In this document: positions 12,154 to 22,409 of the stretch, piece after piece
Layout of the letters: every line of letters starts with the position of its first letter
Numbering within the stretch: position 1 is the stretch's first letter
From: an archaeon
Lineage (GTDB): Archaea; Asgardarchaeota; Heimdallarchaeia; Hodarchaeales; S146-22
DNA length: 23,913 nt
Reading direction: 5' to 3'
Assembly: GCA_024276395.1 (NCBI GenBank)
Contig: JAJRXH010000202.1
Span: 1 to 23,913, forward strand
Made by a program: the position numbers and the translations under genes
The notes under the pieces: model-generated
Told to the model about the DNA's origin: nothing
What the model saw: the letters and a program-made list of their open reading frames with translations, nothing else
The model's database searches: none

Positions 12154-13950
12154 ATGTTGATGACTATTAAGAAAACAGCAGGATATCGTCCAGCTAGCCG
12201 CAAATTATCTGAGCTACCCTTGTATTTTGAAAGATTACTACCTTTCACGGGAATTTTGAGAGTTGCTTTCATTGATCTGATGATCCTAAGCATGCTCGGC
12301 ATCTTCATTTTCTTCGATTATGCTTCTTTAATAGTTCGAATCACTCGTGGATTAATTCGTCGTGATCTCATTCTTAGGTATTTTTCGTTGAAGGATCAGG
12401 AAATCTTATTAATTCTACTTCTAGTAATTCTATACAATATTAGTAACATTTTTTGGATATTGAAGCCTAAAAAGATTCCGTTTGGTGAAACTTACATTCT
12501 TTTTTCGTTTATTTTCATCATTCTATTCAATGATGGCATCTTGGTACTTCTCAATGCGGACCAATTCCTCCATTACACCCTAGAACACGCACCAATAGAT
12601 TGGATACTATTAAGTTTTCTCATAGGTCTTACTTTTTTCACGATCTGGTTCGAACGTTACGTTAGGAAAAACAGACCGAAGAATATTTTTGATCTTGATC
12701 CGAATAGCATCGTCGAAACACTCAATTTCTTGATTTTTCTTCTCTTTACCTTGTTTCCCTTATTCATATTGCTCTTTCATCCTTTTTACAATCCAAAAGG
12801 TACCATTGTTTTGATAGATATGACCATGAACCTTTTGATTTCTCTTGATCCTTTAGATATCATGGGCACTCTAGATCAATGGTTCTACATTCTTCTAGAT
12901 GGATGGAAAGTTCTCCTCCTACTGGGTACTTACATCATTACCTTTTATCTAATGTTTCGTGCTACTAAGCAGCACGTGCTATCCAAGTTGGGTATGACCA
13001 TTCAAAAAAAGAAAAAAGTTCTTTCAACACGCCAATTCATTCGCGATCAGAAATACAAGCTAGTGGGGCTTGCACTCGTGACGGGATCTCACACGATAAA
13101 AGATCCTTATAGTAGTATTTTATGGATTTCACTTCCTCTCATTTCATTGTTCCTCATTTACAAGGATGAACTAAATCGTTTTCAACTATTTGTACTCACG
13201 ACCATCTTAGCTAGTATCTTTGTAAGTCGATGGATTCTTACCACCAACCTAGATACTGGTTACTATAATTTCTCAATTTTTAGCGTTTCCCTGTTTATTT
13301 CAATAATTGGGCTATTCATCACGTTAGTCTTCATCAGAAGTGGATATTTTGTTAGTATTGGCCTATTTGCAATTGCCATCCTCATTACCTATACCTTTTG
13401 GGACACCTATGAATATCTTTTCATTGCAGCCTTGCTTATCATTTTAGGAATTTTTTGGCTCCAACAACTTCAAAACATCGTCATTCCCTCACAAAAACTT
13501 TGTAACTCAGGAAAAGAGGCAAGAAGTCTTCTAGAGAATGAAGAAATCTTTTGGAGTGGAATACAAGAACGATTTTCATTGTCAGATGACTTGATGAATA
13601 GAATTCAATCCTATGTTTACTCTACACTCCAAAATGATCAAGAAAAAGTTCTCGAAATCATTTATGAGCCAGAAAAACCCTATAATGCAGTCATTTTCAC
13701 GGAACAAACCTTTTATAAGGCATTCCAGCTTGCAATTTCCATTTTAGCACCTCTTTTCGTATTGCCTTTAATCTTAATTTACATTCCCATTCCCTTCTTG
13801 GGACTTTATCATTCATCATCAGCCGGAAATTTCGCCGTTATAGTAATTTTATCGCTATACTTACTATCATTTGTTTTGATTTGGCTTCCTCCCATCCCCA
13901 TTCCCAAGTTTAAGGAAATGGAACTAGAATACAGGAGGTTTAAGCAATAG
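12154..13950 (+). CDS. Polytopic integral membrane protein (598 aa, 10 or more predicted TM helices, one soluble insert near residues 450-530), unknown family
   Basis: A strong AGGAGGT Shine-Dalgarno lies inside the end of the DUF58 gene, 6 nt before the ATG, with a 3-nt intergenic gap. The protein has long runs of hydrophobic segments. It occupies the slot where bacterial MoxR/DUF58 operons often carry a transglutaminase-like membrane protein, but I see no GxC...H...D transglutaminase core and the protein has only one Cys. Confidence 0.8.
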   Translation: MLMTIKKTAGYRPASRKLSELPLYFERLLPFTGILRVAFIDLMILSMLGIFIFFDYASLIVRITRGLIRRDLILRYFSLKDQEILLILLLVILYNISNIFWILKPKKIPFGETYILFSFIFIILFNDGILVLLNADQFLHYTLEHAPIDWILLSFLIGLTFFTIWFERYVRKNRPKNIFDLDPNSIVETLNFLIFLLFTLFPLFILLFHPFYNPKGTIVLIDMTMNLLISLDPLDIMGTLDQWFYILLDGWKVLLLLGTYIITFYLMFRATKQHVLSKLGMTIQKKKKVLSTRQFIRDQKYKLVGLALVTGSHTIKDPYSSILWISLPLISLFLIYKDELNRFQLFVLTTILASIFVSRWILTTNLDTGYYNFSIFSVSLFISIIGLFITLVFIRSGYFVSIGLFAIAILITYTFWDTYEYLFIAALLIILGIFWLQQLQNIVIPSQKLCNSGKEARSLLENEEIFWSGIQERFSLSDDLMNRIQSYVYSTLQNDQEKVLEIIYEPEKPYNAVIFTEQTFYKAFQLAISILAPLFVLPLILIYIPIPFLGLYHSSSAGNFAVIVILSLYLLSFVLIWLPPIPIPKFKEMELEYRRFKQ

Positions 13951-14102
13951 CATACCAGCCATTTGCGAATATCAGGGATGTTGTCTTTATCATCAGTACT
14001 CTAATTTCCTTAAGCTTCATAATACTCTTCATTTCTTTCAAATGGCGGACTGAGTCCAAGAAGTTAGAAGCAATCTACGACTTAACACCAATATACGAAA
14101 AA

Positions 14103-16691
14103 ATGGTCAAAGAACGGACAGATAATCAACAAAAAATCATCAAAACGGAAAATGATGAGTTTTCCATCCAAATTACAGTAGGTAAAACGTTTAGGGATCC
14201 TAATACAGGCTTAAATATCGTACTCTGTCCCAAGTGTTTTAACAAGATGTCGTTGTTCCTATGGCAAGGAACAAAAAGATGCTTGAGTTGTGGTCAAGGA
14301 ATTGGAAAAATTGAAGAACTAGAAATTAACTACACGCAACCACAAGTAGGTACCATAATTGAAAATGAATTGCTACGTTCCCAATGGGTAGAGTGCCCGG
14401 TCTGTGGATATAATAACACGCTAACTGCCATTGAAACAAATAAGATATGTTCTTCGTGCTCTGTCATCATTGGAAGCCTTCTCAACCCATCTACTGGTGA
14501 ACTCATCACGCTTGACATCGAAGAGATACTCATTGAGTACGAAAATAAATTTCAGGATGAGGAGAAAACCAGTAATTTACCGTTGCTCCAAATCAGTAAT
14601 GACGAAAAAATACTCCAAGATAGTTTGGCAGAAGGACTATTAGGGTTCTGGGAGGAAAGATGGCAAGTTAAATGCCTGTATTGTGGGTACATGAATGATG
14701 CGTCTTTGGTTAACAATTTCACTAATTTCAAGTGTGAACATTGCTTGCAACCAATTAAATCCCTCAAGTTCGACGAGAAGAGCCCAATCATGAACATTGA
14801 ATTAACTCCCATTGAATGTCCTCAATGCTCATTGGTGTATGAAAATAAAGAGAAATTACTAGAACTCATCGAACAAGAACTCACTTGCCAATGTGAATTC
14901 TCATTATTTGAGTATCTGCGTGATCCCGTCAAGGAAAAGGAATTTTATTCGAGAATGGTAGAATTACAAGTTAAATCCATGGAAGAAATTGAGTCAGATA
15001 GCTCAGAGAGAAAAGATGAAGAAAAATCAAACAAGCGCTTGTGTCCTTCGTGTTTCTCTCTCTATGATCTTGATGTCTTCGAATGCCCCACCTGTGATCT
15101 TTATTTAGATCCTGAAATGGCCAAGGCAGAAGAGCTAGATCCTTACGCCAAAGATTGGGCTTATCCATATACCGTTGATGAATTAGAAAAACTCATTGAA
15201 ATCCCGCCGTATGTGGCACGGAAGATTTATTGCGCAACTTGTGACGCTTACCATGAAAAATACAAGCTTCTCGCGGATAACGTGTTTTCATGTCCCCTTG
15301 ATCTTACTGATCTCACAAAACACAAGAGTTATTGTCAAAATTGCTCAATACAGTATCCCACTAATTACAATTTCTGCATGGAATGCGGGAAACAACTTGA
15401 AATCTTAGAAGTCGAAGTGTACATACCGCCACGGCTAAAAGAAACCACAGCTCCACCCACACCAGAACACGAGCCCAGTCCAATGACGATAAGAATTTTT
15501 TGTCTTGATTGCCAAGAAGAACACGAATATGACCTTGTACCACGATATTGCAAGAAATGTGGAGGGAAAATCGAGAAGAGTATGCATTTTTGTCCCCAAT
15601 GTCAAGTTTATTATCCGGTAACCTACAAGTTCTGTCGAATATGTGGCAAAGAACTAACAGAAAAAGTTCTTCCACAAGCAGATCGAATTACCATTACCGA
15701 AAAAGCCGCGATTTATTGTCATCACTGTCGAAAAAGTCAAACCTATACTTTTGTCCCAGCCGCTTGTTACAATTGTTTCATGCCGTTAGAAGTGAATGAA
15801 CTAAGATATTGTCAAAAATGCAAGATTAATTACCCACGTTTCTATAAATACTGCCAAGAATGTGGAAAACCACTCTCCTTCTCTAGAATTTCCCTACCAA
15901 AGCCATCAAAGTTAAAGAGCGTCCCCATTTATTGTAGTCCATGCCAAGAAACATATTTCTATCAGCATCCAGCAAAATATTGCAAGAAATGTGGACAATA
16001 CAACCGATTACAACCGTTGAGACGATGCCCACAATGTTTAGCCATTCAATCTCCTAATTTTAAATATTGCAAGAATTGTAAAGCGACGACAATAACTTGG
16101 ATTCCAAACCCCTTTGAAGTCAACCCGTCTCTATTAGAGGCATTCACTAAAATTGAACTGGAGAGTACACAACAAACTTCAATGGAAGAACTACAAACAA
16201 TAGAGCATCAAATTCCTCCAACCACCTCTCAACAAATAGAAGTTCCACGACTTACTCCTAGTAGTAGCTCATCTGCTTCAGCAATTCCAATCACTCAAGT
16301 TGACAAAAACCAATCTAAAAAACAAAAGATCGAAGCACTCCCAAGGGATGTTAAGAGTGATGACCAAAAAATCACTGAAAAAGGATTGATTGAAGAACAA
16401 GTAAAGCAATTTTTGGTAGATTATTTGAGAAAAAACAAATGGAAGTTAATCGATCCCGCCAAAATAGGCTTCAAAGTTGATATCATTGCTTCCAAAAGGA
16501 AAAAATTAATCGGCATTCAAGTCTCTAGCAATCCTACTACGGCGATGATGGATGAGCTGCTTTTCACGGGTTTTCCGGGAAAGTGGGCAATCTTTGTATT
16601 AAATAATGATGATGGGCAAGATCTTGGAAGAAATACCTTCCACGTGAAAACGTTGGACGCCTTGAGAAAGATCATCGATTCACTCGTGTAA
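14103..16691 (+). CDS. Multi-zinc-ribbon protein (about 13 CxxC...CxxC units) with Ser/Pro-rich linker and a C-terminal ~100-aa restriction-endonuclease-fold-like domain
   Basis: Cys pairs run from C42 (nt 14226) to C659 (nt 16079). Eleven are complete Cys4 units and two are degenerate (CPQC...CQC and CATC...C). Units such as FCPQCQVYYPVTYKFCRICGKEL, YCQNCSIQYPTNYNFCMECGKQL and YCQKCKINYPRFYKYCQECGKPL match the zinc_ribbon_2/DZR pattern. The start is uncertain: there is no Shine-Dalgarno before ATG 14103, and the frame stays open upstream to nt 13944 (see findings). Confidence 0.85.
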   Translation: MVKERTDNQQKIIKTENDEFSIQITVGKTFRDPNTGLNIVLCPKCFNKMSLFLWQGTKRCLSCGQGIGKIEELEINYTQPQVGTIIENELLRSQWVECPVCGYNNTLTAIETNKICSSCSVIIGSLLNPSTGELITLDIEEILIEYENKFQDEEKTSNLPLLQISNDEKILQDSLAEGLLGFWEERWQVKCLYCGYMNDASLVNNFTNFKCEHCLQPIKSLKFDEKSPIMNIELTPIECPQCSLVYENKEKLLELIEQELTCQCEFSLFEYLRDPVKEKEFYSRMVELQVKSMEEIESDSSERKDEEKSNKRLCPSCFSLYDLDVFECPTCDLYLDPEMAKAEELDPYAKDWAYPYTVDELEKLIEIPPYVARKIYCATCDAYHEKYKLLADNVFSCPLDLTDLTKHKSYCQNCSIQYPTNYNFCMECGKQLEILEVEVYIPPRLKETTAPPTPEHEPSPMTIRIFCLDCQEEHEYDLVPRYCKKCGGKIEKSMHFCPQCQVYYPVTYKFCRICGKELTEKVLPQADRITITEKAAIYCHHCRKSQTYTFVPAACYNCFMPLEVNELRYCQKCKINYPRFYKYCQECGKPLSFSRISLPKPSKLKSVPIYCSPCQETYFYQHPAKYCKKCGQYNRLQPLRRCPQCLAIQSPNFKYCKNCKATTITWIPNPFEVNPSLLEAFTKIELESTQQTSMEELQTIEHQIPPTTSQQIEVPRLTPSSSSSASAIPITQVDKNQSKKQKIEALPRDVKSDDQKITEKGLIEEQVKQFLVDYLRKNKWKLIDPAKIGFKVDIIASKRKKLIGIQVSSNPTTAMMDELLFTGFPGKWAIFVLNNDDGQDLGRNTFHVKTLDALRKIIDSLV
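15231..16079 (+). repeat. Protein-level tandem array: four units, each pairing a type-A zinc ribbon (I(Y/F)CxxC...YCKKCG) with a type-B zinc ribbon ((Y/F)CxxCxxxYPxx(Y/F)K(Y/F)CxxCGKxL)
   Basis: First Cys positions of the A units are residues 377, 467, 539 and 611. First Cys positions of the B units are 411, 497, 570 and 642. Units 2-4 are spaced 72-73 residues apart (about 216 nt). The DNA copies are diverged, so this is not a recent duplication. Confidence 0.75.
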
Positions 16692-16704: not shown

Positions 16705-18381
16705 ATGGACGAACGTAAAAAGATGAAAATATGGATATTCATCATCTTGATATGCTCTAGTTCAATCATGCTAACCCATTTTTCTATAATGATGTCAACA
16801 CAGAATCGATACTTGCTTAATTTCAAGCAAAATGAAATGATAACAAGTCACTCTCATAAAAAAGATTATAGTCATTTAGTATCTCAAAAAACTCCCTTTC
16901 ATCAAAAAACGCCATTCATTAAGCAAGTTCAGGAGATCGGTACACTCTCTGTACATCCTTATCATCTCGAGGCCATTAATGATAGCCTACAAATTGAATC
17001 GAATTTTATCTTTAATGCGACATTAGATCGAACAATCTATGGAAGTGGTAGTATCATTCACATTAAAGGGTATCTAGGTTACGCTAACAATACGCCCATT
17101 GCCGGTAATGAAGTCAACATCACCTTTCTTGATGCAGTTAACAACAAGTTGACTAGCACCACGGAAAACACGCGTTTGGACGGAAGTTGGAACGTGGATT
17201 ATCAACTTTCTTCCTCAACTCCCACTGGAGGCTATCACGTAGAAGTTTGGACGAAAGTAAATGAATCGATCTTGTCCCTATCATTAACCTATACTGTTGT
17301 CGCACGCAGTTCAATTACTTTCATCTCGAATTCAACTCTTCCTAATCCACCCATTCACTATTTCCCCTTTTCAATCATCGTCAAGTTGAGTTCTCAAGAA
17401 ATAAGCGATGCTAAAATTATATTCACGACTGACGAAGGTATTACATGGAAACAAGCAACTCTAGTAAGTTCCACAGAAGACCCAGCAACATTCACCGCAT
17501 TGCTAGGACCTTTTAACAAGAGCATAAATAAATTACAATGGTTTGCTGTCATCATTGATAGTGATGGAAAAATAAAGGAATCTCAAATACAGGTAATCTC
17601 TTTTCGTCCGTTTAACGCTTCCATCACGATAGATATCACCTCAACTCCCTACACGCACGTGACTCACGTTTGGAATGTAACAATCAATACTAATTTACCA
17701 GAAGATTACTACTACATAAAAGTGAAAGCAGCCTTTCTTGGTAATGAGCAAGAGTTTTACTTGCCTACTTGGAAAGTAAGAGCTGGTTTTTATCAGTTCT
17801 CTTTCAACACGACAATGACTGGAACATGGACTTTTACTGCGGAATTACGATCGACATTCAATAATTCAATTTTAAAACAACAATCAGAAACCACCTATCT
17901 GTCCTTAATGGACATTCATCCACCTCGAATCCAAAATGTCGAGTATGATAAAAGTAGCATCTTCAATGATTTGCCAGTTGTTGTTACCATCATCATCGAA
18001 GAAAATCATACTTACCATGATTTACTAGTTTTCGTGAAATACCGTCAAGGTACCATTGAAGAAGGTCCTACTACCCAATGGTCAGTCAAAACCCTATTAT
18101 CGCCTGGACAGAATAGCCAAGATACCGTGAAAATTCAATGGGAAATCCCAGTTACATTAAAAGAGGGAGATTTATTTCAATTTCAAGTGATAGCAATTGA
18201 TGGATTCAATAACACTGCATCTTCAAGACTTTATACCATTTCTTATCCCTTAACAAGGGAAGAATCCACTAATTTTCCCTTCTACATGTTCTTAATCACA
18301 TTGATGATGTTTTTTTTCAATAAGTTCAAAAGAACTCGAATGCTGAAAAATGAGAAGATTCTTAATCAAGGAGATGTATGA
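16705..18381 (+). CDS. Type-I membrane surface protein with Ig-like/beta-sandwich domains, N-terminal signal/anchor and C-terminal TM helix
   Basis: A GGTGAG Shine-Dalgarno precedes the ATG. The N-terminal hydrophobic segment is IWIFIILICSSSIMLTHF and the C-terminal TM is FPFYMFLITLMMFFF, followed by the basic tail NKFKRTRMLK. The ectodomain has more than 10 N-x-S/T sequons and a GNEVNITF...RLDGSWNVDYQL motif of the same type as in the giant protein. Confidence 0.85.
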   Translation: MDERKKMKIWIFIILICSSSIMLTHFSIMMSTQNRYLLNFKQNEMITSHSHKKDYSHLVSQKTPFHQKTPFIKQVQEIGTLSVHPYHLEAINDSLQIESNFIFNATLDRTIYGSGSIIHIKGYLGYANNTPIAGNEVNITFLDAVNNKLTSTTENTRLDGSWNVDYQLSSSTPTGGYHVEVWTKVNESILSLSLTYTVVARSSITFISNSTLPNPPIHYFPFSIIVKLSSQEISDAKIIFTTDEGITWKQATLVSSTEDPATFTALLGPFNKSINKLQWFAVIIDSDGKIKESQIQVISFRPFNASITIDITSTPYTHVTHVWNVTINTNLPEDYYYIKVKAAFLGNEQEFYLPTWKVRAGFYQFSFNTTMTGTWTFTAELRSTFNNSILKQQSETTYLSLMDIHPPRIQNVEYDKSSIFNDLPVVVTIIIEENHTYHDLLVFVKYRQGTIEEGPTTQWSVKTLLSPGQNSQDTVKIQWEIPVTLKEGDLFQFQVIAIDGFNNTASSRLYTISYPLTREESTNFPFYMFLITLMMFFFNKFKRTRMLKNEKILNQGDV

Positions 18382-18821
18382 CCATGGGAAACGTGATAAA
18401 TTTAAATTTGCATTCCTACTTTCAAGATGTCTCTAATAAATGGCTGGAACTACTTAACACGTTGAGCTTGCAAGTACCTAACCACCCACAACTAAATCAC
18501 CTGATGACTCTTTATGAAGATCTCGAACAAATTAAGTTCGAGGTTCAGTATCTTCCATCACCCTCATCATCACTCCTAAAAAGACAAAAAAATATGTATG
18601 AAGTCCTCATGCTATTAAGTGCCGTGTTATGTCAAAAAATCCTTAGGATCATCGTGAACTTACATGACCAAGTAAGTCTTCATCAAAAATACCTAGAAGT
18701 GGAAGAAATTGAAGAAGTTACAAGACTCATAAGACAGGTAGAGCAAGTAAATCGAATGCTCCTAAGACTCCTCCAAGGTGAAGATCTCAACACAACCCTC
18801 ATCAAGAAAATGGAACAATAA
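18378..18821 (+). CDS. Small all-helical/coiled-coil cytoplasmic protein (147 aa), unknown family, possibly an ESCRT-associated adaptor
   Basis: The ATG overlaps the upstream stop (ATGA at 18378-18381) and is preceded by AGGAGAT. Heptad-like Leu/Glu/Gln-rich sequence is present (EVEEIEEVTRLIRQVEQVNRMLLRLLQ). The TAA at 18819-18821 is in the same frame as the next gene. No family was recognised by eye. Confidence 0.65.
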   Translation: MTMGNVINLNLHSYFQDVSNKWLELLNTLSLQVPNHPQLNHLMTLYEDLEQIKFEVQYLPSPSSSLLKRQKNMYEVLMLLSAVLCQKILRIIVNLHDQVSLHQKYLEVEEIEEVTRLIRQVEQVNRMLLRLLQGEDLNTTLIKKMEQ

Positions 18822-18833
18822 CATGCTAAAGCA

Positions 18834-19388
18834 TTGGAACAATTAAAGACAAAGCTGCTAGGAATTGAAGAAGATGTCGAGGAAATACGGATTCTCGAAC
18901 AGCAACAAAAAATACATAAGGGAAGATTTCTCGGAAAGAAGAAATTCATCAAGCAATTAGGCGACATCATTCTTCAGGAATCTGATGAACTCTCAAAGAA
19001 AAGTGGCGGTATTGTTGAATTACAGAGGTTGTATCGCCACTTAAAAAGAAAATATGACATTGATATGGATGTTACAGATGTACTCGATGCTTGCGAATTT
19101 CTGTTAGCAAAAAACGTCATCGATGCCATCATCGAATTACCAGGTTCAGTTATGAAAATCATCTCTTTTTCTCCGATGGCACTTGATGCTGAAATACGAC
19201 AATTACTATTTTTAGCAAGTTCCCACGGCGGCGTGCTAACTAGAGAAGAAATCACGCTAAGCACGGACTGGGATCAAGCTCGGATAGATCGTCTCATGGA
19301 TCTGATGGAACGAAGAGGTTTTGCCATACGAGAAAAATCCTTCGAGGGAGAAAAGTGGTACTTCCCAGCATTCTATGAAAATAAGTAA
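18834..19388 (+). CDS. vps22: ESCRT-II Vps22/Vps36-like protein (EAP30 domain, tandem winged helices)
   Basis: KKSGGIVELQRLYRHLKRK...DVTDVLDACEFLLAKNVIDAIIELPGSVMKIISFSP forms the first winged helix. SHGGVLTREEITLSTDWDQARIDRLMDLMERRGFAIREKSFEGEKWYFPAFY forms the second. Both follow the pattern I recall for eukaryotic Vps22/SNF8: GG(I/L)xxLxxL, V(S/T)xxD(L/V)xxA, VTxxE(I)...W...RA...L, and aromatic-aromatic-x-P-A-(L/F) at the C-terminus. The only usable start is TTG 18834. There is no in-frame ATG until codon ~77 and no Shine-Dalgarno. Confidence 0.78.
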   Translation: MEQLKTKLLGIEEDVEEIRILEQQQKIHKGRFLGKKKFIKQLGDIILQESDELSKKSGGIVELQRLYRHLKRKYDIDMDVTDVLDACEFLLAKNVIDAIIELPGSVMKIISFSPMALDAEIRQLLFLASSHGGVLTREEITLSTDWDQARIDRLMDLMERRGFAIREKSFEGEKWYFPAFYENK

Positions 19389-21260: not shown

Positions 21261-22409
21261 TTATTTTTCCATCAATTTTACATGATTTCCTTCGATTAAT
21301 AGAGCAATAAGCTCATTGGAAAGGCCGTGCAAGAGATGTTCTAATACCACGAATTGATCAACTTGTAACGTGACCGTCGCATCGCAGTAAAAACCTTGCA
21401 AGAGGGGAAGATTAGCCAAGGGGCTTACATCAATGACCTTTAGGCGATTTTCGCCTAACGTCAAGTATTCTAAAGACAGGCAATGCTCAATTGGGCTCAT
21501 GTCTATCTGTTCCAACTCATTTCGTGCCAATTTCAGAACTCGTAAGCGATGACACTCGGCCAGGGGAGAAAGATCTATCCGAGAAAGTCGATTGAAAGAA
21601 AGATCCAATTCTTTTAATCGCCTACAAGAAGCCAATGGAAGCAGATCAACTTGTTGAAGCTCATTCTCTTGTAATCCTAGATACGTGAGATTTGAGCAAT
21701 GACGAAGCGGTGAAAGATCCACGAATTCCAAATGATTCTGATACAAGCCAAGACTGCTTAAATGAATACAACGAGACAAGGGTGTCAAGTCCATTTCAGA
21801 GACGGCAATATCATGTAATCCCAGGACCGCCAAGCTTGGAAAGAGCTTGAAAGAAGAAAGATCCAGTTCACCCAATGGATTTTCCGAAAGATGCAAGAAG
21901 GCCATGTTCTCCTTGTGGCCAAGAACTTCAAGATTTACCTCAGAGAGACCATTTTTACGCAAGCTCAAGTATTCTAATAGATGACATGAACGTAATGGCG
22001 AAAGATCAATATGTTCCAATTGATTTTCGGAAAGATAAAGTTGTCGAACCTCTTTTAGATTCGATAAAGAACTCAAATCAACTTCGACTAGCTGGTTTTT
22101 CCACAATTTCAAGCTCTTGAGACGGGGACAATGACGGAGCGATGCAAGGTCAACATCTTCAAGCATGTTTTCGGAAAGATCAAGCTCAATGAGGTTCGAA
22201 CAATGGCGGAGGGGAGATAAATCGATCGATCGCAGTCCAACCTTCCATAACTTGAGATGTTGCACCCGTGGACAATGCTGCAGGAATGAAAGATCTATTT
22301 CACTTAAATTCGTTCCATAAAATGAAAGATAAGTCACGTCACGAGCAACTTTTCTTACCTGTCGCGTGCCATCCCAATTTTTCCCCATTACCAATACTTT
22401 CTCCATCAT
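21261..22409 (-). CDS. Leucine-rich-repeat protein (about 13 tandem 24-residue LRRs)
   Basis: The repeating unit is DLSPLxxCxxLxxLxLxxNxLxx(V/I), e.g. DLSPLRHCSNLIELDLSENMLEDV and DLSPLRHCSNLTYLGLQENELQQV. An in-frame TAG lies immediately upstream of the ATGATG start. The gene is convergent with the + strand block. Confidence 0.92.
   Translation of the reverse strand: MMEKVLVMGKNWDGTRQVRKVARDVTYLSFYGTNLSEIDLSFLQHCPRVQHLKLWKVGLRSIDLSPLRHCSNLIELDLSENMLEDVDLASLRHCPRLKSLKLWKNQLVEVDLSSLSNLKEVRQLYLSENQLEHIDLSPLRSCHLLEYLSLRKNGLSEVNLEVLGHKENMAFLHLSENPLGELDLSSFKLFPSLAVLGLHDIAVSEMDLTPLSRCIHLSSLGLYQNHLEFVDLSPLRHCSNLTYLGLQENELQQVDLLPLASCRRLKELDLSFNRLSRIDLSPLAECHRLRVLKLARNELEQIDMSPIEHCLSLEYLTLGENRLKVIDVSPLANLPLLQGFYCDATVTLQVDQFVVLEHLLHGLSNELIALLIEGNHVKLMEK
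21375..22334 (-). repeat. 72-nt periodic coding repeat (LRR array)
   Basis: About 13 consecutive 24-codon units are read directly from the translation. Cys is conserved at repeat position 8 in 10 of the 13 full units. Confidence 0.8.

Follow-up and report, generated by a model that had tools for sequence, protein, structure and literature searches.

A probably membrane-anchored protein with thirteen predicted zinc ribbons in a MoxR-linked gene cluster of an Asgard archaeon

Locus and gene order

We analysed a 23,913-nucleotide stretch of DNA (the window; contig JAJRXH010000202.1) from an Asgard archaeon of the order Hodarchaeales, and concentrated on an 862-codon open reading frame (ORF) on its forward strand (14103-16691, +), whose product, P0002, would be about 914 residues long if a probable upstream extension is counted. 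An earlier reading of this DNA from its letters (the sequence-only reading) had drawn attention to a string of zinc ribbons at 14226-16079, an interval that runs exactly from the first cysteine (C42) to the last (C659) of the 862-residue protein. The source assembly (G000) comprises 3.76 Mb and is 86% complete. P0002 is a very rare, though real, archaeal protein known from two genomes only. A word-indexed search of 5.8 billion proteins returned a sole homologue, P0003, of 897 residues, encoded on a 90-kb NCBI contig (locus L002), 44% identical to P0002 over the full length and carrying the same 13 units. Six-frame searches found no orthologue in 40 relatives or in 400 genomes of the phylum spanning 85 genera, and pattern scans of genome and metagenome contigs revealed no further homologue. 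The comparative results below rest on these two sequences.

The window and L002 share an 11-gene order: a giant surface protein, a DUF4350 protein, MoxR, a DUF58 protein, a polytopic membrane protein, the zinc-ribbon protein, an MG2-domain glycoprotein, an EAP30 (Vps22-like) protein, a Band_7 (SPFH) protein, a membrane protein with a C-terminal ribbon and, on the opposite strand, a methyltransferase. Since protein identities across the cluster range from 89% (MoxR) through 44% (the zinc-ribbon protein) down to 33%, the two genomes are well diverged. The cluster genes overlap or are separated by short gaps, and no terminator-like site was found around the zinc-ribbon gene. Like the zinc-ribbon protein, the polytopic membrane protein (598 residues) and the MG2 protein gave no match in the 40 relatives, and the best archaeal matches of MoxR came from metagenome-assembled genomes of Thorarchaeota and Promethearchaeota, at 51-53% identity. 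Together with the EAP30, Arf-like GTPase, roadblock and UFL1/PCI-like genes of the same genome, these matches point to an Asgard source. The sequence-only reading had held that homologues scattered among unrelated contexts, with variable ribbon number and without linkage to ESCRT (endosomal sorting), SPFH or MoxR genes, would speak against a role beside these neighbours, and had proposed a survey of ribbon number. We found the only homologue in an identical MoxR/Vps22-like/SPFH context, with 13 ribbons.

Zinc ribbons and the tandem array

P0002 contains 51 cysteines (5.9% of its residues), all within residues 42-659, and 48 of them fall in 24 CxxC motifs. These make up 11 canonical Cys4 ribbons of the form CxxC-x(10-17)-CxxC, with paired CxxC starts at residues 42/60, 98/116, 191/211, 314/328, 411/425, 467/483, 497/511, 539/555, 570/584, 611/627 and 642/656, and two variants, ribbon 4 (C239xxC...C262xC264) and ribbon A1 (C377xxC...C397xxD400, with H384 as an alternative ligand). 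The initial count of about 13 ribbons in one chain was therefore correct. All 51 cysteines, as well as H384 and D400, are invariant between P0002 and P0003, which are 44-48% identical overall, and among 7058 ORFs of at least 80 residues in the same genome the runner-up has 9 CxxC motifs against 24 in P0002; the cysteine pattern thus exceeds chance. The Cys4 knuckles would be expected to bind zinc.

The block of highest conservation comprises beta strands and ribbon 1 (C42/C45/C60/C63) at residues 22-75 (14166-14327, +), and is about 90% identical to P0003, with sliding 30-residue identities of 93% and 90% compared with 44-48% overall. Ribbons 2-5 (14394-15095, +), delimited by their CxxC positions and invariant cysteines, follow on acidic, partly helical linkers: ribbon 2 at 14394-14459, ribbon 3 at 14673-14744, ribbon 4, the CxxC...CxC variant, at 14817-14894, and ribbon 5 at 15042-15095, all on the forward strand. 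Residues 1-376 carry a net charge of -28 in P0002 and -27 in P0003. Helices were predicted at residues 139-149, 171-184 and 275-297 in a full-length AlphaFold2 (AF2) model that was built on the two-sequence alignment and, at a mean predicted local distance difference test (pLDDT) score of 38.9, was used for rough secondary structure only and not for a fold search. The acidic helical linkers described earlier are thus a feature of the N-terminal half, whereas the linkers inside the C-terminal array are short, Pro-rich and neutral to basic.

The final eight ribbons are arranged as four A/B units, each a double zinc ribbon (DZR), at 15231-16079 (+): AB1 at 15231-15386, whose A ribbon is the CxxC...CxxD variant, AB2 at 15501-15644, AB3 at 15717-15863 and AB4 at 15933-16079, all on the forward strand. 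The A knuckles begin at residues 377, 467, 539 and 611 and the B knuckles at 411, 497, 570 and 642, so that units 2-4 keep the 72-73-residue register reported for them, while unit 1, with its variant A ribbon, is off by 90/86. The register is equal in P0003 (465/538/610 and 496/569/641). When the profile comparison suggested by the sequence-only reading was made, the whole protein passed the cut-offs of Pfam DZR (PF12773; E = 8.5e-20, 71.1 bits, cut-off 27.3) and DZR_2 (PF18912; E = 5.9e-11, 42.5 bits, cut-off 27), and also matched Zn_ribbon_15 (E = 4.1e-07). Single units scored 30.8 (AB2), 27.7 (AB3), 27.3 (AB4) and 23.8 bits (AB1) against DZR, AB2-AB4 reaching the cut-off alone, and each of the four units has the two consecutive ribbons per approximately 45-55 residues that define a DZR. 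The ribbons are of the generic prokaryotic DZR/Zn_Ribbon_1 type, which is already known and common; multi-DZR proteins exist.

Eight aligned copies of the unit, four from each homologue, gave the consensus I(Y/F)CxxC...Y...CxxC...CxxC...YPxxYKxCxxCGxxL, with the cysteines invariant apart from the A1 variant. The B-ribbon motif YPxx(Y/F)K(Y/F)CxxCGKxL that had been proposed as conserved is complete in B2 and B3 and nearly so in B1, but does not hold for B4. Likewise, the statement that the 351-residue membrane protein of the cluster ends in the same ribbon type is right in the generic sense only, as its match to Zn_Ribbon_1 (23.9 bits) lies just under the cut-off.

Identity is 17-31% between paralogous and 36-55% between orthologous units, and no DNA tandem repeat was found; the array is therefore an old protein-level duplication, fixed at four units. 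A recent DNA-level repeat expansion was rejected, given the missing tandem repeat and the low identity between units. The net charge of the array is +14 in P0002 and +1 in P0003; as this charge is not conserved, we also discarded it as a sign of nucleic-acid or lipid binding.

N-terminal extension and start site

Upstream of the annotated start, ATG 14103, lies a conserved, open, in-frame reading (13947-14102, +) that is a probable N-terminal extension of P0002. From the TAA at 13941-13943 to ATG 14103 there are 53 codons in frame with the zinc-ribbon gene, with a counterpart at 9842-10000 of L002, and in both genomes, which were assembled independently, frame 0 alone is open, the other two frames containing stops. 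The encoded residues are 57% identical. Differences between the genomes fall on the three codon positions as 23/6/31, which departs from an even spread (chi-square approximately 16, 2 degrees of freedom, computed by hand), and 15 codons differ synonymously. Following a short N-terminal stub, the stretch encodes a hydrophobic helix of 19-20 residues (13980-14039, +), which is kept through conservative replacements and has a 19-residue Kyte-Doolittle maximum of 2.7 in both genomes; a basic KW(R/S)TESKK flank and a further conserved segment then lead into M1 of the annotated ORF. That the 53 upstream codons are coding is, from this comparison, well supported.

A Shine-Dalgarno sequence, GGAGGT (13934-13939, +), is situated within the last codons (AGG AGG) of the upstream 598-residue membrane gene, 7 nucleotides before the ATA at 13947-13949 (+). 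This ATA overlaps the stop codon of the upstream gene, TAG 13948-13950, as ATAG; the overlap is conserved in both genomes, and GGAGGT-N7-ATA is identical in the window and L002. Most other genes of both clusters have a Shine-Dalgarno-like GGTG or GGAGG 5-8 nucleotides before their start, and ATG 14103 is without one. Gene callers start at this later ATG in both genomes, by which the transmembrane helix is lost. Because the conserved upstream codons encode a transmembrane helix, and because a Shine-Dalgarno sequence precedes an ATA that overlaps the upstream stop, P0002 is probably anchored in the membrane, and since the flank is positive-inside, the ribbons probably lie in the cytoplasm. We infer that ATA 13947 is the start codon and that the topology is N-out. 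We think, then, that the real product has about 914 residues, a single N-out anchor and cytoplasmic ribbons, and that it is made by coupled re-initiation at a near-cognate codon.

Programmed frameshifting or readthrough from the 598-residue gene was considered as another way of joining the two reading frames and rejected, as the zinc-ribbon frame has a TAA of its own at 13941-13943, so that a -1 slip could take place only within the CAA codon ahead of the TAG, where no slippery sequence occurs, and the reading beyond the TAG in the upstream frame is unconserved and runs into stops.

A different explanation, concerning the anchor only, is that P0002 is a soluble cytoplasmic protein starting at ATG 14103 and that the upstream stretch is a leader, a regulatory element or the remnant of a former start. 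Both genomes conserve ATG 14103 and the residues after it (MVK.RT.N), the start picked by gene callers in L002 is this one, and within the extension there is no ATG, GTG or TTG common to both genomes. However, such a stretch would have to account for the uneven codon-position pattern, for a single frame remaining open in both genomes, for a hydrophobic helix preserved by conservative replacements, and for a perfect Shine-Dalgarno sequence ahead of ATA when ATG 14103 has none. We consider a soluble start unlikely.

C-terminal tether and a probable nuclease-fold domain

Beyond the last ribbon, residues 666-760 (16098-16382, +) form a low-complexity tether rich in Pro, Ser, Thr and Gln, which is 20% identical to P0003 and, in AF2, unstructured apart from one short helix at residues 675-682. 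Several large indels separate the homologues within it, and their total lengths differ by 35 residues; indels of this kind are usual in a disordered spacer that need not keep a set length.

The tether leads to a C-terminal alpha/beta domain of approximately 100 residues (16383-16688, +). AF2 modelling of residues 755-862 gave a pLDDT of 82.4 and a predicted template modelling score of 0.74, with two of five models confident, and a secondary-structure order of alpha-beta-beta-beta-alpha-beta. In Foldseek searches, the top matches in the PDB were Bax1, Hjc, the R2 endonuclease domain, Cdn1/Can2 and BglII, and those in BFVD were RecB-family, VRR-NUC, restriction endonuclease and Holliday junction resolvase proteins. 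The E-values ranged from 4e-3 to 0.1, none below 1e-3, and the class was consistent in both libraries. With moderate confidence, we assign the domain a PD-(D/E)xK-like (restriction-endonuclease-like) fold. In the model it shares its secondary-structure order with Hjc, Bax1 and VRR-NUC, its top structural matches (Foldseek probability 0.9-0.99, TM-score 0.4-0.6), but unlike these free dimeric enzymes it has no sequence-level membership of the class, is tethered to a probably membrane-anchored ribbon string, and has serine in place of the (D/E)xK lysine in both homologues.

What is left of the motif is E764...D793 (E in the homologue)...Q806-V-S808, an equivalence judged from secondary structure without superposition, and the catalytic D...(D/E)-x-K motif is not present. 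Since the lysine is missing in both proteins, the domain is probably not an enzyme. It is nevertheless well conserved in its core, residues 796-825 being 80% identical to P0003. We found no sequence match for the domain in Pfam, NCBIfam or the PDB, and none above noise to the Hjc family PF01870; a HMMER search of 1.84 billion representative proteins returned no genuine homologue. One candidate from these searches, P0004 (E = 3e-4), was judged spurious, being a surface protein of Ig repeats whose match lies in a GKW..V.N.DG string. Searching the archaeon's own genome in six frames with PF01870 likewise gave no match while controls responded, which at 86% completeness does not show absence.

Some restriction-fold enzymes, such as BglII and BamHI, use variant motifs, and nucleic-acid binding is frequent among zinc ribbons. 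P0002 could, on this basis, be a nucleic-acid-directed protein, with the C-terminal domain binding or cutting DNA or RNA and the ribbons contributing further nucleic-acid contacts, so that it would act as a membrane-tethered nuclease or DNA anchor in defence, DNA uptake or chromosome tethering. The fold matches to Bax1, Hjc, VRR-NUC, RecB-family and restriction endonucleases, the conservation of E764, of an acidic residue at 793 and of Q806, and the basic character of the window protein's A/B array and C-terminal domain (pI 8.7 and 9.5) are in keeping with such a role. We nonetheless regard it as quite unlikely: the signature lysine is serine in both homologues, nuclease families in Pfam and NCBIfam gave no sequence match, the Foldseek E-values are only 4e-3 to 0.1, and the array charge drops to +1 in the homologue. 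In addition, half of the protein is strongly acidic (-28), its neighbours are all membrane or envelope proteins with none that handles DNA, and P0002 has no match in PADLOC. A defence-system reading was rejected on the last of these grounds, the one match in its neighbourhood being a faint, sub-threshold one of MoxR (IetA, E = 0.002).

A possible membrane-tethered scaffold

A row of ribbons in one polypeptide had been taken as a candidate for multivalent binding, and this is the natural reading. We tentatively favour, at slightly short of an even chance, the view that P0002 is a lineage-specific, membrane-tethered, multivalent cytoplasmic scaffold for the products of a MoxR-linked envelope module. 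Translation would begin at or near ATA 13947, coupled through the ATAG overlap, with GGAGGT 7 nucleotides upstream, to termination of the preceding polytopic membrane gene. The product would have a short stub outside, one transmembrane helix, and everything downstream in the cytoplasm: the conserved ribbon 1 at the membrane, four ribbons on acidic linkers, four double ribbons, a flexible tether of approximately 95 residues and a degenerate PD-(D/E)xK head. Each Cys4 knuckle would hold one zinc ion and serve as a small, rigid protein-binding bead, thirteen of them in a row making a multivalent platform on the inner face of the membrane. The candidate partners that such a platform may gather or order are products of the co-directional gene array, namely the cytoplasmic tails of the giant surface and MG2 glycoproteins and the polytopic membrane protein and, on its other side, MoxR/DUF58, the Vps22-like/SPFH pair and the ribbon-tailed membrane protein.

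Conservation between the two proteins has two peaks, the juxtamembrane ribbon 1 (approximately 90%) and the C-terminal core (80%), with less conserved beads and a variable tether between them. Because of these two peaks, we propose ribbon 1 and the C-terminal head as two specific contact modules; the other ribbons may be binding beads or spacers, and the nuclease-fold head may be a dimerisation or ligand-binding module, probably without enzymatic activity.

Several known proteins suggest how such a scaffold could work. In Caulobacter, the cytoplasmic zinc finger of the bitopic membrane protein ZitP binds PopZ (PMC5182065, PMC5182063), and in Myxococcus the bitopic GltJ uses a cytoplasmic zinc finger to recruit MglA-GTP (PMC11135422). 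P0002 would resemble them in having cytoplasmic zinc fingers on a bitopic membrane protein, a resemblance that we use as a "works like" model and not as a claim of sequence relationship; these bacterial proteins have one finger, N-terminal to the helix, whereas P0002 would have 13 ribbons C-terminal to it. Among solved structures, the best sequence match to the A/B profile was another multi-DZR protein, DZANK1 (E = 2e-05, four matched stretches), a protein-protein adaptor that serves vesicle transport together with NINL and dynein (PMC4617706); a further assignment makes it a dimeric, microtubule-associated component of the ciliary transition zone (bioRxiv 10.64898/2026.06.11.731632). The likeness is limited to the generic ribbon pattern, as DZANK1, unlike P0002, is eukaryotic and soluble, has ankyrin repeats, and is without an anchor, a nuclease-fold domain or a shared gene context.

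With prokaryotic DZR proteins (PF12773, PF18912 and Zn_Ribbon_1, PF13240) P0002 shares CxxC-x10-17-CxxC pairs in which the second knuckle is followed by G and, as in most of them, cytoplasmic ribbons tied to a membrane-spanning segment. In typical members, which are polytopic or bitopic, 1-5 ribbons stand at the N-terminus; P0002, in contrast, has 13, preceded by what is probably a single N-terminal anchor, and combines a regular array of four units with a nuclease-fold domain at the C-terminus, an architecture seen in one other genome only. The weak DZR matches that we found elsewhere were mostly cytoplasmic ribbons fused to membrane-spanning segments, with 4-10 CxxC motifs and at most five ribbons, which fits a membrane-proximal role and shows P0002 as an extreme case. 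In two relatives, G001, a genome of the same family (locus L005, 1663-3042), and G019 (locus L007, 1489-3099), other genes encode proteins in which several membrane-spanning segments come after 3-5 N-terminal ribbons, as is ordinary for DZR proteins in this group.

A number of points weigh against the scaffold. The extension has no canonical start codon and initiation at ATA is rare, which makes it less than certain that the anchor is translated. The array is basic (+14) in P0002 but hardly so in the homologue (+1), so that even its surface character is doubtful, and the full-length AF2 model is poor (pLDDT 38.9). With only two genomes, the shared gene order may partly reflect common descent rather than selection. 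Moreover, at the 80 best MoxR loci elsewhere, Thorarchaeota included, no CxxC-rich ORF was plausibly comparable, a few such ORFs not having been followed up. We therefore rejected the idea that P0002 is a general MoxR(-DUF58) partner, its link to MoxR being confined to the two genomes in which it is known.

A more far-reaching version of the scaffold would make P0002 the cytoplasmic organiser of an undescribed Asgard envelope structure, in which the outer giant and MG2 glycoproteins are coupled through a 13-bead tether to two inner components, a remodelling ATPase (MoxR/DUF58) and a duplicated Vps22-like/SPFH pair that shapes membranes, and in which ATA re-initiation, coupled to termination of the preceding gene, fixes the stoichiometry of P0002 with that gene's product. 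We offer this as a speculation that is distinctly doubtful as a whole.

On the cytoplasmic face of membrane proteins in prokaryotes, few unstudied modules are, to our knowledge, commoner than DZR ribbons. P0002 takes them to thirteen per chain, in a conserved cluster where a MoxR chaperone system stands beside giant surface glycoproteins and a paralogue of the Asgard Vps22-like/SPFH pair. What is new is the architecture (anchor, 13 ribbons, tether and degenerate nuclease fold), the non-canonical coupled start and the setting in a two-genome cluster. If P0002 is a scaffold, it would offer a handle on what DZR beads bind and on how an Asgard lineage wires surface proteins to eukaryotic-type membrane-shaping proteins. 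The conserved non-canonical start also matters for annotation, since a dropped anchor makes the protein look soluble. The stakes are modest, with two known members, generic ribbons and an attractive link to ESCRT and ubiquitin that is unsupported.

Relation to ESCRT-type proteins and a second Vps22-like/SPFH locus

The link in question came from the sequence-only reading, which had compared the ribbons with the zinc fingers of ESCRT-II (yeast Vps36) and had conceived of a ligand-binding role beside the Vps22-like gene. P0002 would then be a Vps36-like adaptor whose fingers recognise a ubiquitin-like modifier or ESCRT-type partners and hand cargo on to the Vps22-like/SPFH pair encoded next to it. 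Tandem RanBP2-type or NZF fingers, the Nup153 and Nup358 arrays among them, act as beads that bind ubiquitin, Vps28 or Ran, and NZF fingers have the spacing C-x2-C-x10-C-x2-C. The B ribbons of P0002 are small Cys4 fingers with the same spacing, and the zinc-ribbon gene lies close to, and in both genomes three genes upstream of, the Vps22-like (EAP30, 37 bits) and SPFH genes. The NZF fingers of Vps36 are likewise tandem protein-binding beads, and in Asgard archaea, ESCRT-I/II-like proteins frequently carry fused zinc ribbons (PMC10936438).

The fingers themselves do not bear out this comparison. An NZF finger has the signature W-x-C-x2-C-x3-N-x6-C-x2-C together with a ubiquitin-binding Thr-Phe, and on inspection of the unit alignment the Trp, Asn and Thr-Phe positions are all missing. 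In the recommended check against NZF/RanBP2 profiles, none of nine segments of P0002 matched zf-RanBP (PF00641) at E<=10, a search in which HMMER filters may hide very weak matches. Compared with solved structures, the A/B profile reached yeast Vps36 only at E = 0.12, level with RING fingers and ribosomal zinc proteins. Nor does P0002 contain the tandem winged-helix region of the EAP30/Vps36 family (PF04157) or a GLUE domain, although the neighbouring 184-residue ORF is EAP30.

The gene neighbourhood also argues against a role linked to Vps22. The zinc-ribbon gene is physically, and by its start site translationally, coupled to the MoxR-side membrane gene and not to the Vps22-like gene. We found an SPFH paralogue on another contig of the same genome (C356) and, in a sister genus, in 21 of the 22 genomes. 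At C356 and at the sister-genus loci, a long Vps22-like gene and the SPFH gene are followed by a gene for a 588-residue PCI/UFL1-like protein with RING-like zinc sites that is unrelated to P0002. Because this pair occurs on C356 and in 21 of 22 sister-genus genomes without a P0002-like protein, the Vps22-like/SPFH pair is a widespread unit, and the pair in the window is a diverged extra copy joined to the lineage-specific MoxR cluster. That the widespread paralogue adjoins a UFL1/PCI-like zinc protein does connect ubiquitin-like tagging to the gene pair; P0002, however, is absent from the 21 genomes that have the pair and from the 400 genomes of the phylum. The ESCRT/ubiquitin idea is thus unsupported, with no positive evidence beyond proximity, and we hold a Vps36-like adaptor to be very unlikely.

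The C356 cluster (locus L101, 2967-8136), a second and apparently canonical one, encodes an EAP30 protein of 338 residues, an SPFH protein (Band_7/Band_7_1), the 588-residue protein (PCI, a faint E3_UFM1_ligase match and 9 CxxC motifs), a 99-residue zinc-ribbon protein, an Arf/Rag-like small GTPase and a roadblock/LC7 protein. The Vps22-like, SPFH and 588-residue protein genes were adjacent in all three sister-genus genomes examined (L102-L104).

Neighbouring genes

Two ORFs of the window, of 147 and 184 residues (18378-19388), match one 306-residue EAP30 protein of L002 (14609-15529) at 62% and 72% identity, respectively; the Vps22-like copy in the window is therefore split. Between the ribbon-tailed membrane gene and the methyltransferase gene, the window also has a gene for a 382-residue leucine-rich-repeat protein (21261-22409, -) that is missing from this position in L002, and the right-hand edge of the cluster falls here.

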